Assembly (NCBI GenBank): GCA_963803145.1
Contig: CAWDLW010000020.1
Location: 1-64,000 of the forward strand
Length of the DNA: 64,000 nucleotides
Reading direction: 5' to 3'
DNA from: Methanotrichaceae archaeon
Lineage (GTDB): Archaea; Halobacteriota; Methanosarcinia; Methanotrichales; Methanotrichaceae
Positions 2,648 through 11,209 of this stretch are shown one piece after another. The notes beneath the pieces were generated by a model. It was given only the letters and a program-made list of their open reading frames with translations, was not told the origin of the DNA and ran no database searches. The position numbers and the translations under genes were made by a program. Position 1 is the first letter of the stretch, and each line of letters starts with the position of its first letter.

Positions 2648-3286
2648 ATGAGTGTTTAAGACTCTACGTGTATTAGGGCGCTGTTGTAAAGAGCTTTCAT
2701 CAAGAAATCCTATAACAGGATCAGTAACAGTGGTCAGCACTGATTTTATCCTTTTTTAAAAAACTTTCTGCATCTGCAGGCCTCTTTTCATTTCTGATGT
2801 ATGGTTTCCCATACTTAACTTTTTTCACTACTCTTAAAATTCGCCAGCCATATTTATATGAAAAATCTATACCTCTTGTATCCCTTACATATTTTAATAC
2901 GTCTTTTATCGTCATTCCTTTGTCTTCAATTTCTTTAATAACTCTATCCCATTCATCAAGAGACATCTTTGGCTTTTTGCCATTTCTATTCTTTGGTGTC
3001 AATCCATTATAGCCATGATTATTCCATCTGCTTAACCAATATTTTATTGTCCTCTCGCCCCTTTTTAAGATATCAGCTACCTCATATACGTTTTTCCCTT
3101 CATATAAATGTATTATTGCCAATAACCGTTCCTTAATCCTTAGATCAGTCTCTTTTTTATATAATTTATCAAGGTCTATCTTTGATATATGCCTAATTAT
3201 TATAGGTTTTCTACCCATGCCTATGTATTTTCACGCATTAATTATTAAATGTATCTATAGGGCAATAAGCTCAATGATTAACTATA
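2648..3286 (-). mobile_element. Truncated IS630-family element (one end + orfA 2721..3218; most of the DDE orfB missing)
   Basis: Near-identical to 54892-55530. Terminal TATAGTTAATC (rc) ends at 3286, and homology stops abruptly at ~2648. Confidence 0.9.
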
Positions 3287-3509: not shown

Positions 3510-4340
3510 TCATGCCCTGAATTCAGAATAATTATAATCAGATGTGTTATATGCCCTTTGAAGAAAATCGCATATCTGTAATTGGGTAGGCGAAGAACCC
3601 GAGAATAATGTGACATTCCCGAGATTATATGGCCCGCTTACTCTATGGTTGTTAATGCTTTTCCCATCAAAGCTGAGGTGCAAGGTATGATTTCCATGAG
3701 CGAGTACTTCGTGATCTATCGCCCAGTCGATTTCATTGTTATTAGAATCATAGAGATATCCCATCAAATTATACTCTCCGGGCACTTTTACATATACCCC
3801 GGCATCAATAATAAGATAATCATACAGGCCATCGCCGCTCGCATCTACCATATGCTCAGTGTAGTTGCCAATAAGCTTGGCCTGCATCTGAGGCCCATTT
3901 TCTAGGAGATAATAACTTTTTGTGGCATATGCATCATCTATTTTATCAAGCAGGCCTCCACGCGCGTCGTATAAAGTCAAGTTCTTGAGATAATGCTCTC
4001 CAACTACCTTTGATCCCCGGAAATCCAACCTTACTGATTTGACCCCTAAACCCAAATAGGTCTTAGCGGTTACATTGATGCTCTCATTACGATCGGCACT
4101 ATATAGCGATCCTTTTACGGTATATTCACCGGGAGAAAGTACGATAACACCTATATTGATAGTTATTAAATCGTATAATCCATTTCTATTTGTATCTGTT
4201 CCAAAGTCGGAGTATATTTTGCTAAAATGGGCGTTTCCGCCGGTGCTTATATTTTGCTGTGCAAATACTGTTGTACAGGAAATCGTAAGGATGATAGTTA
4301 TAAATATAATAGAAAAAAGTAATCTACATTTAAGTCTCAT
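3510..4340 (-). CDS. Secreted protein with two tandem beta-rich repeats (DxxxxGLYDxLxI...PGEY...G.LY)
   Basis: Signal peptide; internal repeat DTNRNGLYDLITINIGV..PGEYTVKGSLY / DASGDGLYDYLIIDAGV..PGEYNLMGYLY; many NxS/T sequons. Confidence 0.75.
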   Translation of the reverse strand: MRLKCRLLFSIIFITIILTISCTTVFAQQNISTGGNAHFSKIYSDFGTDTNRNGLYDLITINIGVIVLSPGEYTVKGSLYSADRNESINVTAKTYLGLGVKSVRLDFRGSKVVGEHYLKNLTLYDARGGLLDKIDDAYATKSYYLLENGPQMQAKLIGNYTEHMVDASGDGLYDYLIIDAGVYVKVPGEYNLMGYLYDSNNNEIDWAIDHEVLAHGNHTLHLSFDGKSINNHRVSGPYNLGNVTLFSGSSPTQLQICDFLQRAYNTSDYNYSEFRA

Positions 4341-4856: not shown

Positions 4857-7424
4857 ATGTTTAAAAAATTTCAATTGCTGCCTAAGAATGGCATAAATGC
4901 TAAAGCAGATGAGTTTACCAAATTAGCAAGGGATTGGATCTGCGTTATTCTTATCCTGTTTGCACTAAACGCCTTCTCCCTTAATTTAGGATATATTTCT
5001 CCCGTTTTTAGCCGTTTATTGGGCATTTTATCCCTTTTAGGAGTGCTAATTTTTTACAGTCCTGCTTATTTAAATATTCCGAGAAATAAAGAGCCTGTTT
5101 TGGGTATAATCCTAATTCTTTTCTCTCTTACGCTCCCATTTTTATCTTCACAAATCGAATATTGGCTAATCTGTCTTCCAATATTTATTTGCGGATTTGA
5201 CTTGCTCTTAAAATCTGTAAAAGTTCACGAAAATACGCTGCCGGCTCTTTCTCTGTGCAGTACAATTTATACAATTTTTTACATTTGCTACATCAACATT
5301 CCGGCCTTATGGTTAGGTATTAAATCATTATCTGAGGGCTTCTCTGGAGTTATAGGTCGGATTGTGGGAACCCAATTGAGTATTGGCCCAACCATTAGTG
5401 GAGCCTTTATTTTATTGACATTTATCCTTTGTATAATTGCATTTTTTATCTTATCTGAGAAGCAGGGACAATGGAAAACATTTATTTTTTCTATTGTAGG
5501 ATTAATATTGGTTTATGCAGTTTTTGTCGCAGCTCATGCCTTGATCTTGACGACCGGCGATGCTGCAATGGATGATCTTTATATTGCCTTTTTGATGTTT
5601 TCAATAGCATTCATATTTGTTGTTCGAGCATTCAAAATTAAGTCCATGCCTATCGGAAATTTGGCCTTCAGGAAAATTGATGGCGCGGCAGTTATCGCTA
5701 TATTTTTCTCGCTCATTTTAATATCCATTTTTCCATATATTGGTGATGGAAGCGCTGGAAAGGTGGTAATCTATGAACGAAATTGTGAAATGGGCTTTGA
5801 TCTTCCCCATTTCCCACAGGGAAATGAATCTTTTAAGACTTATAGCAGCTTTTCAGTGCGCGGCATGGGGTTATATCTGGAAAAGATGGGCTATAAAGTA
5901 GAGGATTTAAACAGTACAAATCCGCACACATTAAAAGATGCCCTAAAGGATGCAAATGTATTAATGTTAATAAATTTAAATAAATCATTCTCTTCTGATG
6001 ATTTGGATAGCATATGGAATTTTATAAAAAATGGCGGTAATCTTATCGCCTTTAGCGATCATACATCAATGTTTGCAAGCGATGAGGACTTCAAGCGGGG
6101 AAAGGATTACCTGAATGAAGTGCTTTCGCCAACAGGAATAAGGGTTAACCCGGATACCGCAGATTATGTGGTCAATCACTGGACATATGCTAATACATTT
6201 TTGCCCCATTATGTAGCTAAGGATTTAGGATTTGAGATCACTACGTCCTCAGTTGGTGCGTCGCTTAGCTTGAGCGGAAATGCAAGGCCGGTAATCATCG
6301 GACGCTATTCCTTCTCTGATAGAGCTAATGCAACTGTGCCAGGCCACCTGGGAAACAGAACTTATGATTTGGGTGAAAAGATAGGAGATCTTGTTGTAGT
6401 TGCCTCTGACACCTATGGCAAGGGCAATGTATTGGTTTTTGGGGATACATCATATATTTTCAGCTCTGAGGTGCCGCTTAGATACAAATTAGTTCTTGAT
6501 TCCATTGTGTGGCTGATGAGCCATGAGTCCGAATCTTTAGCGTTTCTTCCATGGATTGGACTGATAATACTGGGGCTTCTAGCAATGGGCTATCTATTCC
6601 GTAGTCAGCCCAACAAGAATATGGCCCTATTTTGCGCTATCATCGCTGTGGCCATAGCCCTTTCATTAGTGGTTTCCGGAAGCATAAATAACTCGCTAAT
6701 TCAAGTTCCAGAGAAAGGCGGAAAAGACACAGCATGGATAGATTATTCTCATTTAAATCAATTCAATCTGAATAACTATGAGGATGATAGCGTAGATGGA
6801 TTAATAACAAACTTATACAGGAATAATTACATGCCTCTTGTTTTAGAGAATAGAGGCGATTTTTCAGAGATATTAAATGGAGACGTATTGGTCATCATAG
6901 CTCCAAACGAAGCTTATACCCCTGAGGAGGTAACCATACTGGATAAATTCGTCCGGAATGGGGGCCTGCTAATCATAACTGCGGGGTACAGCAGCAAAGA
7001 CCCGCTTGATCCCGTGCTGAAATCGTTCAACATATCCATAGGCAGTATCCCACTTGGATCGGCGCCTTGGATCGTAGAGACACATAATGCTGGTGAAGCC
7101 GGGACTGTAACCCCTGAGAATTTAGCAAAATATTGGCACAAACCGAAATATATGGAAGCTTATCCTGTTCTGGCAACTGGAAAATATGAGCCAATAACCT
7201 GGTTGAATTATAGGGGTGTAACCTATAATCTGACCATAGCAAAGAAATTCGGCAATGGAACTATTGTGCTGATAGGAGACTCCAGGTTCTTATTAAATGA
7301 AAACCTTGAATATGCATCGGATTTGCCCGGCAAAGAGAATTTGGAACAGTATCAGCTTCAATGGCTGGGGAATATTGAGCTTTTGCGACAGATAATTTCC
7401 AAGTACGAGGGGGTAAGATTATAA
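4857..7424 (+). CDS. Polytopic membrane protein A: ~9 TM, then a GldG/IFT52/DUF4350-like domain, 2 TM, and a second such domain
   Basis: 855-aa ORF; FIKNGGNLIAFSDHT, YGKGNVLVFGDTS, FVRNGGLLII and FGNGTIVLIGDS class-I-GATase-fold motifs. Confidence 0.7.
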   Translation: MFKKFQLLPKNGINAKADEFTKLARDWICVILILFALNAFSLNLGYISPVFSRLLGILSLLGVLIFYSPAYLNIPRNKEPVLGIILILFSLTLPFLSSQIEYWLICLPIFICGFDLLLKSVKVHENTLPALSLCSTIYTIFYICYINIPALWLGIKSLSEGFSGVIGRIVGTQLSIGPTISGAFILLTFILCIIAFFILSEKQGQWKTFIFSIVGLILVYAVFVAAHALILTTGDAAMDDLYIAFLMFSIAFIFVVRAFKIKSMPIGNLAFRKIDGAAVIAIFFSLILISIFPYIGDGSAGKVVIYERNCEMGFDLPHFPQGNESFKTYSSFSVRGMGLYLEKMGYKVEDLNSTNPHTLKDALKDANVLMLINLNKSFSSDDLDSIWNFIKNGGNLIAFSDHTSMFASDEDFKRGKDYLNEVLSPTGIRVNPDTADYVVNHWTYANTFLPHYVAKDLGFEITTSSVGASLSLSGNARPVIIGRYSFSDRANATVPGHLGNRTYDLGEKIGDLVVVASDTYGKGNVLVFGDTSYIFSSEVPLRYKLVLDSIVWLMSHESESLAFLPWIGLIILGLLAMGYLFRSQPNKNMALFCAIIAVAIALSLVVSGSINNSLIQVPEKGGKDTAWIDYSHLNQFNLNNYEDDSVDGLITNLYRNNYMPLVLENRGDFSEILNGDVLVIIAPNEAYTPEEVTILDKFVRNGGLLIITAGYSSKDPLDPVLKSFNISIGSIPLGSAPWIVETHNAGEAGTVTPENLAKYWHKPKYMEAYPVLATGKYEPITWLNYRGVTYNLTIAKKFGNGTIVLIGDSRFLLNENLEYASDLPGKENLEQYQLQWLGNIELLRQIISKYEGVRL

Positions 7425-10060
7425 AGCGATTATTATGGTTATCCTTAATACCGTTATCTGCATTTTGGCTATTTGCTGTAGATATATATGGCTATACTCC
7501 TGCCCTCATGCCTGCAATAGGAATGATCCTACTTGGGATTGCAATTTCAGCCCTGGGCTTTTTAGAATTCGATATTGTTTCACACAATAAATATGCGATT
7601 GCTATTCTCCCGCTTGTATTATCCAGCTTCGTTATACCTTACCCATATAATGCGGGTCTAATCGTTGCAGCCGCGGCGTTAGTCATATCATTACTGATAC
7701 CCAAAGCAAGGCCGCTATGGTTGGGAGCACTCTTCAGTGGAGTTATCCTAATTTTACACTCTCTCACCTTATCGATATACTATATTTTCGCTCCAAGCCT
7801 ACACCAGTTGGGTTGGCTTGCATACGCAACGTCATTCTTCGCAAGCCAGGTAGGACTGCAAACAACGTCCAGCAATGGCCTGCTTTTTGTATACGCGCAG
7901 AAGAATCTGTTTCCTTTTACGATAACCCTTGAAAAATTAGGGTTTTACCCATGGATTTTAGTATTCGTTGGTGCGCTTATAATAATATTTTTAACATCCC
8001 AAAATGCTTCTTTAGCATTAAAATGGATTCTCGGCTTTACCTTTGTGAGCATAATCTATCTCTTTGCCAGATATCTATTGCTTATCTATATCTTCTTCGC
8101 AACCGATGTACCATATTATGCCGGAGACAGATTGGAGATATTCATAAATCCTTTAATATTAATTGCGAGCTTCATACCCCTAGTGCTATTGTTCCTCTGG
8201 CTGTATCCAATCCAAAGTTTTAAACTTGATTTCAGATTAGATCTCGACAGAAAGCAAGCTTTTGCACTAACACTTCTAATGGTAAGTATATTCTGTTTGA
8301 CATCTGCAGCTATCTTTCAGGATCCTGGAGTAAAAAAAGACGGCAGGATGCTGGTTGATGAGATCCACTCTCTATGGGAATTTTCCACCCTGAAATTAGA
8401 CAAGGAATGGTACGGAGAAAGCTCTACTTACAACTCATACAGCATGGTTGAGTGGCTAAATAATACATATAAAGTAAACCGAATAGTTAGTCCATCCTAT
8501 AAGAATTGGACGATAGCTGGAGCTACAAAGGTTTCGCCCGATATTGTATCCGATAAAATTACCTATGATATTCTAAAGAATTATGACATATTTATAATAA
8601 AAACTCCTTCTAACTACGATCCTGAAGAGGTTGATGCAATAGTTCGCTTTGTAAAGGAAGGAGGCGGACTTTTCCTAATAGGAGATCATACGAACTTCGG
8701 AGGCACCAGCACCAGTCTGAACCAAATATTGAATAAGTTTGGAATGGAGCTTGGATTTGATAGCGTAAACACGATGGACGGCAGGCTATACTACTATAAG
8801 AGAGGTACAATGCCCCATCCAATCGTAAAGTATATGCCTTATTTGGATTTCATGACTGGGTGCAGCATAAAAACACCCCTAAGTGGAGAGCCCGTTGTAC
8901 TCGGGTTTAATCTGGAAGGCGATCCCGGCGAATACGCTTCATCCGGTTTCTTCAGAGAAACTAGATCCAATGATCCCACGCAGGTCACAAACACCATATG
9001 GGGACTAATTAACCAGGTTGTTGCCCTGAAGTATGGAAAAGGAAGAGTAGTGGTTCTTGCAGATTCGACGATAATATCCAATTTTAGGGCCTTTTTTGGA
9101 GGCACCCCGAATCTTATAGTTGGATGTATTGAGTACCTAAACTATAGTAATTCATTCGAGAATGGAAAGCAGATTCTGCTTCTCTTGGGAATAATATTTG
9201 GTGCTTTTGCAGCATACCTCCTAAGCAAGACTATTCTAGGAGAAAAGAAGATAGTGGCCCTGGTATTAATGCTGGCCCTAGGATCTCTAGCAGTAAGCGG
9301 AGCCGTATTCCTGCTATCAACAAAGACTCAAGATACAATTCCGAGCCAGTTCTATGTGAAGAATTACACGGTATGCTTCGACGGTGAACACTCTGACACG
9401 ATTGTGAGCAAAGGTAATGAAAGCGGGAGTTACGAAACCTTTTTCATATGGACTCAGAGGGTAAACCTAACTCCTGCAATAGAAGACAATTTTGAATCGG
9501 CCATGGAAAAGGGAAGGATTTTAGTTATAATAGACCCAGTCAAGGATTTATTTGGAGCTGAGAGAGATGCGTTATTAAATTACGTTAAAGAAGGCAATTC
9601 TATCCTGCTCATGCTTGATCCTAATGGGCCAGGATCTTACTTAACGCAATCCTTCGGTATGGATACTTACTATATAGAGCCGCCATACAATGCAAGCAAC
9701 CTGACACTAGATCAAAATATAACCCAGGGACTGCCTATAAAGCCGTGGGGCCTGGCTATAACGGGCGGAAAACCCTTGATGTCCATAGGCAACAGGACTG
9801 TCATGGCTGAGGCAAATTACGGCAAAGGTAAATTTGTCCTATTCACCGACTCCCAGGCATTTAGGGATGGATTTTATGGAGAACCAGGCTATATGGGATA
9901 TTCTGGGACAGATCCGAATCTCATGAATGGAATGGGCTACAATCTAAGATCGCTATACAACTTGGAATATTATATCTTTGAGAATGTTCTGAGTGATGGA
10001 AATCGCTCTGCTGCATATTCGGATAAAAGAAATACAACTATGGTAGGGATCTTGGGATAG
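7421..10060 (+). CDS. Polytopic membrane protein B (paralog of A): exosortase-like TM region + two GldG/IFT52/DUF4350-like domains; probable ATA start
   Basis: The frame of ORF 7508..10060 is open back to ATA at 7421 (IKRLLWLSLIP...), which overlaps the upstream TAA and follows GAGGGGGT. Motifs FVKEGGGLFLIGDHTN, YGKGRVVVLADS and YGKGKFVLFTDS. Confidence 0.7.
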   Translation: MKRLLWLSLIPLSAFWLFAVDIYGYTPALMPAIGMILLGIAISALGFLEFDIVSHNKYAIAILPLVLSSFVIPYPYNAGLIVAAAALVISLLIPKARPLWLGALFSGVILILHSLTLSIYYIFAPSLHQLGWLAYATSFFASQVGLQTTSSNGLLFVYAQKNLFPFTITLEKLGFYPWILVFVGALIIIFLTSQNASLALKWILGFTFVSIIYLFARYLLLIYIFFATDVPYYAGDRLEIFINPLILIASFIPLVLLFLWLYPIQSFKLDFRLDLDRKQAFALTLLMVSIFCLTSAAIFQDPGVKKDGRMLVDEIHSLWEFSTLKLDKEWYGESSTYNSYSMVEWLNNTYKVNRIVSPSYKNWTIAGATKVSPDIVSDKITYDILKNYDIFIIKTPSNYDPEEVDAIVRFVKEGGGLFLIGDHTNFGGTSTSLNQILNKFGMELGFDSVNTMDGRLYYYKRGTMPHPIVKYMPYLDFMTGCSIKTPLSGEPVVLGFNLEGDPGEYASSGFFRETRSNDPTQVTNTIWGLINQVVALKYGKGRVVVLADSTIISNFRAFFGGTPNLIVGCIEYLNYSNSFENGKQILLLLGIIFGAFAAYLLSKTILGEKKIVALVLMLALGSLAVSGAVFLLSTKTQDTIPSQFYVKNYTVCFDGEHSDTIVSKGNESGSYETFFIWTQRVNLTPAIEDNFESAMEKGRILVIIDPVKDLFGAERDALLNYVKEGNSILLMLDPNGPGSYLTQSFGMDTYYIEPPYNASNLTLDQNITQGLPIKPWGLAITGGKPLMSIGNRTVMAEANYGKGKFVLFTDSQAFRDGFYGEPGYMGYSGTDPNLMNGMGYNLRSLYNLEYYIFENVLSDGNRSAAYSDKRNTTMVGILG

Positions 10061-10222: not shown

Positions 10223-11209
10223 TTAATGCAGTCCTCCCATATTGTTATGTGGGCAACACTCCTGTAGGTTATTATTGCAAGTATGCCGACAGGTCGATAC
10301 ACAAGTACTTCTACATGTGTTAAAGCAAGTTTGTTGACAAGTTTGCCAGCAGGTGGACTGACTACCACATGTTGAATCACAGGTTTGTCTACAGGTAACG
10401 CAGGTGGCGTGATTACATGTGTTTACTAGACATGTATTCGCGCATGTGGGACCACGACATGTTTTCGAACATGTGCTTGCGCAAGTTGCTGAGCATGATC
10501 CTACGCAGGTTTGCACATTACCGCATGTGTTCGCGCAGGTATTTGCGCAGGTCGAATAGCAGGTATCCGCACAGGTTGACCAGCATGTAGCCTGGGCGCC
10601 GCATGTTCCTCCGCAGGTAGACTTGCAGGTTTCGCATGTTGGCTTCGAGTTACATGTATCCTGGCAGGTGCCCTGGCATTGGGTATAAGAGCCACTGCAT
10701 GTTTTCTGCAATGTATTATGGCAGAATCTTCCACATGTAGCTGCGCAGGTTGGCACAGCGCCGCAAGTGCTCCAACAGGTATCTTGACATGTTACCCAGC
10801 AGGTTGGCTGAGTGCCGCAGGTTCCTTGGCAGGTATTCTTACAGGTCAAGCAGGTAGCCTTTTGATTGCACGTGTCTTGACATGTGCCGACACATATAGT
10901 TCTCTGACCTCCGCACGTTTTTTGAGACGTTTGTACATTTGCGGCCATAACGTGCAAAACCTGGTTACTGCCGCCATCAGAAGCGCAAGGAGTTCCTTCT
11001 GGACAAGAGCTTTGGACATTTAGGCTCTGCGTGCTGATGCTATCATAGCTCCACCCATCCGAGGAACCTCCAGTAGATACCCCCATATCTCCTAAAGCCT
11101 GGTCCATCCTGACTTGGTAGAGCGGCGACCCGTCAGTTGGACCCGATGCACTTGCAACCGTGCATGCAAACAATAGGAGAGCTATAGGAATTATATATCG
11201 CATTTTCAC
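10223..11209 (-). CDS. Secreted Cys/Thr-rich protein with ~44 Thr-Cys (TCxx) repeats
   Basis: GGAGG RBS before GTG; signal peptide MKMRYIIPIALLLFACTVASA; ~53 Cys counted by eye; repeats use varied synonymous codons. Confidence 0.85.
   Translation of the reverse strand: MKMRYIIPIALLLFACTVASASGPTDGSPLYQVRMDQALGDMGVSTGGSSDGWSYDSISTQSLNVQSSCPEGTPCASDGGSNQVLHVMAANVQTSQKTCGGQRTICVGTCQDTCNQKATCLTCKNTCQGTCGTQPTCWVTCQDTCWSTCGAVPTCAATCGRFCHNTLQKTCSGSYTQCQGTCQDTCNSKPTCETCKSTCGGTCGAQATCWSTCADTCYSTCANTCANTCGNVQTCVGSCSATCASTCSKTCRGPTCANTCLVNTCNHATCVTCRQTCDSTCGSQSTCWQTCQQTCFNTCRSTCVSTCRHTCNNNLQECCPHNNMGGLH

Follow-up and report, generated by a model that had tools for sequence, protein, structure and literature searches.

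Structure of the Thr/Cys-repeat gene

This locus raises the question of what a predicted secreted archaeal protein built from closely spaced Thr-Cys repeats is made for, and which neighboring genes act on it. The sequence analyzed (the window) is a stretch of 64,000 nucleotides from a Methanotrichaceae archaeon. ORF reading placed the gene, designated P0001, at 10223..11209 on the minus strand; it starts with GTG at window position 11209, with a GGAGG-type ribosome-binding site ahead, and ends at 10223, and stops occur throughout the opposite (plus) strand. The 328-aa product comprises a predicted Sec signal peptide, read by eye (residues 1–21; 11147..11209), a leader/spacer (residues 22–93; 10931..11146) and a Thr/Cys core (residues 94–319; 10253..10930), the latter two delimited from the sequence. 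The protein contains 53 Cys in total, 44 of which are preceded by Thr, and the spacing between successive Cys is four in 31 of the 52 intervals. The core accounts for 50 Cys, an even number, in 221 residues, together with 49 Thr and one Ser-Cys.

Repeat comparison confirmed the three super-repeats of TCxx units reported in the initial annotation, and assigned them to the minus strand. They start at residues 96, 168 and 248, with lengths of 72, 80 and 71 aa, and occupy residues 96–167 (10709..10924), 168–247 (10469..10708) and 248–319 (10253..10468), the last with a terminal Cys-Cys. The pairwise comparisons revealed 46/72, 38/67 and 35/67 identical residues, about half of which (22/46, 19/38 and 17/35, respectively) are encoded by different codons, in agreement with the earlier proposal of an old repeat that diverged at synonymous positions. 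The repeat is also, as had been proposed, no DNA microsatellite, since Tandem Repeats Finder detected just two short arrays in the gene, a 12-mer (×2.6) and a 24-mer (×2.3). In the 4.13-Mb genome, only two ORFs contained at least three [TS]CxxTC units, namely P0001 and a paralogue on contig C43. Homologues retaining the TC periodicity, whose absence the initial annotation had named among the grounds for giving up its reading, were looked for and found. The named homologues belong to Methanotrichaceae. PF27846 is annotated on several homologues, and perhaps represents a newly created family that takes in part of these proteins. P0001 itself matched nothing in Pfam and NCBIfam at E ≤ 0.1, and no PDB sequence resembled it, the top match having E 2.6 and vanadium-binding protein 2 reaching E 9.6. 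A search of the ESM Atlas with the precursor gave no usable match, and a promoter/terminator scan remained at chance level.

A leader motif defines a large protein family

Alignment of 14 homologues revealed an invariant Pro-Leu within an SPL[FY]xxR motif that follows the hydrophobic N-terminus, and S28, P29 and L30 were nearly invariant among 32 aligned leaders. In P0001, the motif and a predicted helix after it occupy residues 28–41 (11087..11128, minus strand; from alignment and profile) and are likely the recognition tag. The description of the spacer as leader-like was thereby upheld, except that it is not a generic Ser/Gly-rich stretch: it holds a motif conserved across archaea and bacteria.

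A leader profile of 54 positions, which contained the signal and the motif with the core sequence left out, recovered 403 clusters (50% identity) at E ≤ 0.001. Among the best 150 of these clusters, 134 contained at least two Cys after the leader and 13 contained none, some of the latter looking truncated. Most of these 150 proteins are 100–150 aa in length and carry unrelated, hypervariable and non-repetitive Thr/Cys tails with 2–8 irregularly placed Cys. Judged from its sequence, P0001 is an extreme, repetitive member of this large leader-defined family. NCBIfam named none of 20 leader-family proteins above its cut-off. In 86 precursors, neither a conserved cleavage site ahead of the first core Thr nor a double-Gly motif was found. 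Some leader homologues carry a C-terminal Ig-like or T9SS domain. Bacterial precursors (P0010, P0011, P0013 and P0015; L169–L171) consist of the leader and a TCxx core fused to both an Ig-like and a T9SS sorting domain; T9SS-fused precursors of the P0010 type are located on contigs of about 1 kb.

Thr and Cys occur in register

The relationship between Thr and Cys was analyzed in 116 non-repetitive cores from the best 150 of the 403 leader clusters, leaving out those that exceeded 190 aa, lacked the motif, had fewer than two Cys or contained TCxxTC repeats. The 116 cores contained 567 Cys and 547 Thr, a ratio of about 1:1, and the two counts agreed within one in 90 cores. Against shuffles in which Cys positions were fixed and the remaining residues permuted, Thr was enriched at positions -6 (z 8.4), -5 (z 5.7), -1 (z 4.6) and -7 (z 2.7) relative to Cys, and Ser at -5 (z 3.5), z-scores that overstate independence because the cores share kinship and stem for the most part from a single lineage type. 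Downstream of Cys, from +1 to +10, the same cores showed no enrichment of Thr. A distinct Thr located 3–9 residues upstream was assignable to 463 of the 567 Cys, compared with 325 ± 8 in shuffles, whereas downstream assignment reached 255 Cys against 245 ± 9. Allowing Ser as well as Thr upstream raised the matched number to 541 (421 ± 7 in shuffles) and reduced the unmatched Cys from 104 to 26. With length held constant, the number of Thr followed that of Cys (r 0.60), and none of nine other residues showed a positive relation beyond 0.13. In a control of 250 of the 484 Cys clusters in other proteins of the same genome, 234/918 Cys were matched against 209 ± 10, a small upstream bias (z ~2.6). 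Several cores, such as P0197 and P0268, are formed by back-to-back T-x(4-5)-C units.

The repeat-type precursors exhibited an end effect. Thr or Ser precedes the final Cys in 3 of 26 Cys-rich repeat-type precursors, where 20.9 were expected; this rarity is what an offset Thr→Cys ladder predicts. Odd Cys counts occurred in 15 of these 26 precursors and in 53 of the 116 non-repetitive cores. In the P0001 core, 49 of the 50 Cys pair with a distinct Thr/Ser 4–8 residues upstream, 31 of them at i+5, and T133 and C319 are left free; the Thr of each Thr-Cys dipeptide would bond the next Cys, giving overlapping rings. Such a register is what thioether rings from Thr/Ser to Cys, like those of lanthipeptides, should leave in the sequence, and it shows pairing whatever the type of bond. 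In lanthipeptides, dehydration of Ser/Thr precedes cyclisation (PMC10373908).

Precursors of Desulfobacterota (L076:5986-6888, L079:12470-12907 and L090:12769-14310) are built from a different repeat, in which every Cys has a Thr some 8 residues upstream and Thr-Cys dipeptides are absent. L097:256-831 encodes a Ser-rich version of this repeat.

Two paralogous membrane proteins accompany the precursor

The window also encodes, on the plus strand, subunit A (850 aa; 7508..10060), a predicted modifying enzyme recognized by family searches, a structural model and alignment, and subunit B (855 aa; 4857..7424), a paralogue of the same layout found by family searches and alignment. Profile alignment assigned the first part of A (about 7508-8317) to an exosortase-like membrane domain without the catalytic Cys; the model and fold search placed a GIFT/GATase1-like domain (domain 1) at about 8333-9151, after which a membrane hairpin and a second GIFT domain follow.

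Comparison by hhalign with 22 exosortase/archaeosortase sequences gave weak matches, with probabilities of 53% (E 1.4e-4) for A and 17% (E 1.5e-3) for B, with column-shuffled controls reaching at most 2.5%; A aligned with a single archaeosortase sequence gave no match. In the exosortase alignment the motifs were in register, and the invariant R188 of A fell on the exosortase Arg. The likeness of A to exosortases also appeared as an Atlas lead (0.80) and as a TIGR04178 match in one of 62 A proteins (E 0.016). The catalytic Cys of exosortases (CSG motif) was replaced in all of the A (66/66) and B (57/57) sequences.

A single-sequence AlphaFold model of A was unusable (pLDDT 37) and was rejected; the model of residues 1–550 from a 62-sequence alignment reached pLDDT 85 and pTM 0.85. 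Residues 277–549 adopted a GIFT/GATase1-like fold (Foldseek E 7e-9) resembling IFT52 (Z 20.5, rmsd 2.7 over 205 residues), OST48/Wbp1 (Z 18.2) and site-1 protease (Z 17.9). The GIFT domain filled these fold searches, so they barely covered the membrane part. Pfam matches of the GIFT type were PF14258, PF09822 and PF23355. GIFT domain 1 of A contains invariant H287, S288, W290, E291, D393, H394, H437, D519, S520 and T521 and near-invariant D284 and C452, and the invariant residues of B are H402, T403, D433, D488, D530, D629, N652, R655, D808 and E818. By eye, D393-H394 of A sit at what we take to be the position of the Cys-His pair of DJ-1/PfpI enzymes. The nearest solved GIFT domains (IFT52, OST48/Wbp1 and site-1 protease) are not known to be catalytic, so it is residue conservation that makes the case for catalysis by A/B. 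Basic loops precede the GIFT domains, and 12/13 and 9/9 N-glycosylation sequons are located after residue 300; the GIFT domains are predicted to face outward.

Genomic linkage and co-occurrence

A search of 185,579 species genomes identified relatives of A in 322 stretches. Of these 322 loci, the best 80 derive from Methanotrichaceae, Thermoplasmatota, Theionarchaea, Desulfobacterota, Bacteroidota, Blastocatellia, Latescibacterota and others, and almost all of the 80 have B immediately upstream of A. A simple leader rule scored 48 of the 80 loci as positive, with 62 matching ORFs (56 per Mb), compared with 16 matches, two of them real, in the entire genome that contains the window (3.9 per Mb). 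The leader profile detected a leader gene in 54 of the 80 loci and in 44 of the 53 that are at least 10 kb long, with no match in the other 9 long loci; these linkage counts are partly circular because 31 of the tested loci and some of the tested genomes supplied rows of the profile. Both TCxx genes of the genome adjoin an A/B pair. Other shared neighbors were lineage-specific housekeeping genes, and only the trio of A, B and precursor was common across lineages.

Analysis of 61 related genomes revealed the leader at E ≤ 0.001 in eight, all of which were among the ten with a strong A; a ninth contained true precursors at E 0.003, and three without a strong A gave partial leader matches (E 0.006–0.01). 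In a second class of 121 genomes, A was present in 17, the leader in 15 and both in 14. Co-occurrence of leader and A thus repeats in two lineages, though kin genomes are not independent. Genome-wide searches of two A carriers (G063 and G065) found no leader genes. One chromosome contained a single A/B pair and 16–18 dispersed leader genes. In G002, a genome of the same genus, the precursor is on contig C3 (L130:4362-5003), away from the A/B pair on C1 (L035), indicating that the system likely works in trans.

Thermoplasmatota loci (L042–L094; e.g. L047:12451-14743) contain a subfamily of ~220-aa leader proteins directly behind A. Their middle part is helical, and their C-terminal segment is hydrophobic, with Ser/Thr and 2–3 Cys on its flanks. 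The subfamily is present in 30 of the best 80 of the 322 loci, often as tandem copies.

Leader-directed ring formation as the favored explanation

Taken together, A/B very probably acts in some way on the leader substrates. As to what it does, we lean toward a leader-directed system that makes Thr→Cys thioether (methyllanthionine-like) rings outside the membrane. In this scheme, Sec would export the precursor, and A and B would form one complex that recognizes the leader near the membrane, perhaps via the Cys-less exosortase-like domain. The Asp/His/Glu/Cys cluster of GIFT domain 1 would be the catalytic, perhaps metal, site, removing the Thr hydroxyl and adding the Cys thiol, so that each core Thr (sometimes Ser) would be joined to a Cys 4–8 residues downstream as a thioether ring. 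Known lanthionine enzymes are cytoplasmic and use ATP or Glu-tRNA; here the hydroxyl would be activated without ATP, for which direct dehydration pulled by thiol addition and a lipid-linked donor are candidates. From P0001 this would yield a rod in which about 49 rings overlap. In habitats that are reducing, as judged from the taxa, a ringed product might take the place of disulfides at the surface of anaerobes, being proof against reduction and proteases. Fusion to C-terminal Ig-like/T9SS domains suggests surface display rather than release as a small antibiotic, and the absence of a cleavage motif together with these fusions points in the same direction.

The broader proposition is finely balanced, in our judgment as apt to fail as to hold: that the pair is a new modification class, a pseudo-exosortase/GIFT heterodimer installing extracellular methyllanthionine without ATP or Lan enzymes on hundreds of tagged substrates of archaea and bacteria in anoxic habitats, with products ranging from 2-ring peptides to surface-fused ladders of more than 100 rings as a redox-proof replacement of disulfides. 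No description of the leader plus A/B system was found in full-text searches of the non-subscription literature. The three-gene system is widespread, and new as a system within the literature searched; its lanthionine-like chemistry is a prediction from sequence.

Alternative explanations

The alternative that survives best, although we consider it unlikely, is that A/B is dedicated to these substrates and installs another change: O-glycosylation of Thr, transfer of an O-phosphoryl or acyl group carried by a lipid-linked donor, or a Thr-Cys bridge other than a thioether, the Cys otherwise being free or in disulfides. The linkage and co-occurrence data fit this possibility equally, and the GIFT fold is shared with the oligosaccharyltransferase subunit OST48/Wbp1, as the above Z-score shows. 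Lipid-donor transferases are likewise laid out as a multi-pass membrane domain with an outer domain. However, modification of Thr alone leaves unexplained the 1:1 count, the upstream-only position of Thr (5–7 residues) and the end effect, and no glycosyltransferase family matched the 62 A proteins.

We also regard as improbable an unmodified, disulfide-laddered solenoid, for which A/B would read the leader and serve, without catalysis, in folding, export or anchoring. The regular TCxx period, the old super-repeats and the even number of core Cys in P0001 are what such a fold would have, and known GIFT domains are scaffolds. One study predicts a role in secretion or membrane remodeling for another archaeal DUF4350 family, which has one C-terminal anchor (PMC5898192), and another describes exosortase-like domains (archaeosortases) as handling secreted substrates (PMC6098224), both of which would accord with a non-catalytic machine. 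Most family members, however, are short and non-repetitive with few, irregular Cys, and thus unable to form a solenoid; odd Cys counts are common, the Thr register is directional with varying spacing, and A and B have many invariant Asp, His and Glu residues. The antifreeze-like beta-helix of the initial annotation is for these reasons unsupported, and no PDB sequence match to antifreeze proteins was found either; P0001 itself may nevertheless have a solenoid-like shape.

Still less probable is that the core is a metallothionein-like thiolate binder of metal or Fe-S on the cell surface, loaded by A/B, as its density of 50 Cys might suggest and as a predicted His/Asp/Cys-rich site in A handing over metal might allow. 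The Thr register and the hypervariable cores with 2–4 Cys would then be left unexplained, and the metallothionein-like binder named earlier found no backing in a metallothionein family or PDB match.

Modification by an unlinked, known cytoplasmic enzyme (a radical-SAM ranthipeptide/CXXX-repeat maturase or a lanthipeptide synthetase), with A/B acting in export only, is hardly credible. P0002, a homologue, weakly matched TIGR04117 (E 1.2e-5; 25 bits, where the cut-off is 50), and the unlinked G002 precursor lies 1.4 kb from a radical-SAM gene, but P0001 matched no CXXX-repeat model, radical-SAM-like ORFs were present in just 2 of the best 80 A loci, LanC (PF05147), LanB (PF04738) and LanM (PF13575) were not found in the five carrier genomes searched (G000, G002, G035, G061 and G062), and all that the loci of different lineages have in common is A, B and precursors. 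The Lan-domain search covered these three families, with a positive control for PF05147 only (E 6e-45 elsewhere). Altogether, two homologues matched TIGR04114/TIGR04117 weakly, below cut-off.

Among the proposals of the initial annotation, a multi-core RiPP-like precursor came closest to the ring-forming system favored here. The RiPP-like character with a leader is in keeping with the family-wide tag, the membrane pair and the Thr→Cys register; the multi-core part did not stand, since the units have no repeated leader or spacer between them and no cleavage motif was found ahead of the core, which is therefore single and continuous.

Comparison with known systems

Lanthipeptides of the prochlorosin/ProcM type, a one-enzyme/many-substrate system, share with the present family a conserved leader followed by a hypervariable Thr/Ser and Cys core, Thr/Ser located N-terminal to Cys at ring-sized spacing, and many dispersed precursors for one locus. 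Unlike lanthipeptides, the precursors here have a Sec-type signal peptide, the enzymes are predicted to be outward-facing membrane proteins, and the five carrier genomes contained no detectable LanB, LanC or LanM domain; moreover, cores reach more than 100 Cys, C-terminal fusion domains are frequent and no cleavage motif was found.

As in the exosortase/archaeosortase system (PF09721, TIGR04178), with which the membrane domains of A/B weakly align and whose Arg is kept as an invariant residue of A, one enzyme would serve many substrates tagged beside a hydrophobic segment. A/B differs in lacking the catalytic Cys, in the fusion to two GIFT domains and in the pairing of paralogues, and its tag is N-terminal, in contrast to the C-terminal PEP/PGF signal. 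The outer-domain fold of A is that of GIFT-domain proteins (GldG TIGR03521, IFT52, OST48/Wbp1 and DUF4350 arCOG01314); however, TIGR03521 scored 26 bits against a cut-off of 390, and the invariant Asp/His/Glu/Cys set, the exosortase-like N-terminal domain and the dedicated Thr/Cys substrates set A apart from known members.

P0001 has a Cys at each fourth residue, like the CXXX-repeat targets of radical-SAM enzymes (TIGR04114, TIGR04117), but it is unmatched by those models, has a signal peptide and has no linked radical-SAM gene. Thr- and Cys-rich repeats and, for the antifreeze proteins, secretion are shared with insect Thr-Cys antifreeze proteins and metallothioneins. The unit of the insect antifreeze proteins is 12 residues with a Cys every 6, whereas the period of P0001 is 4; there was no Pfam or PDB match to either group, and the conserved leader, partner genes and non-repetitive relatives are further differences.

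If the ring-forming explanation is true, A/B would represent a lanthionine route unrelated to all known lanthipeptide synthetases and acting where ATP is absent, and neither a GIFT domain nor a Cys-less exosortase fold would have had a catalytic role before. The explanation would also account for how anaerobes stabilize secreted proteins where disulfides get reduced, and would provide an enzyme able to staple highly varied sequences that follow a 15-residue tag, including 50–100 rings within a chain. Even with another bond, this would be a membrane system, directed by a leader and undescribed in the literature searched, whose substrates form at least 403 clusters, distributed in Methanotrichaceae, Thermoplasmatota, Theionarchaea, Desulfobacterota, Bacteroidota, Acidobacteriota and candidate phyla.

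Related loci and neighboring genes

The same genome contains a second trio at G000:C43:27677-34482, in which paralogues of A and B (59% and 54% identical, respectively) are divergent from a 471-aa TCxx precursor; the C-terminal domain of this precursor is also present in other secreted proteins of the genome. On the window's contig, beyond the window, G000:C20:144144-152195 encodes two membrane GIFT proteins of 693 and 697 aa, a distant sister pair with 23–27% identity to A. Flanking this pair are two secreted repeat proteins of the CPTGxGC type with 68 and 61 Cys, mostly 6 apart, and no SPLY motif. The same arrangement was observed in G001 and G017, and no such repeat gene was present in the 16 kb covered in G016 and G026. 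The sister pair and the CPTGxGC proteins are probably a second system of the same clan. A third type of repeat protein, of 177 aa, secreted and rich in Cys (33), Gly and Ala, is encoded at G000:C51:33915-34448, with no GIFT pair among the ORFs listed nearby.

Within the window, positions 3510-4340 (minus strand) encode a 276-aa predicted secreted protein with a C-terminal DUF4785 domain, divergent from subunit B. It occupies the same position in G002 and has paralogues elsewhere in its own genome, but is not a common feature of distant loci. A 165-aa ORF at 2721-3218 (minus strand) resembles, as read by eye, a fragment of a helix-turn-helix IS630-type transposase.
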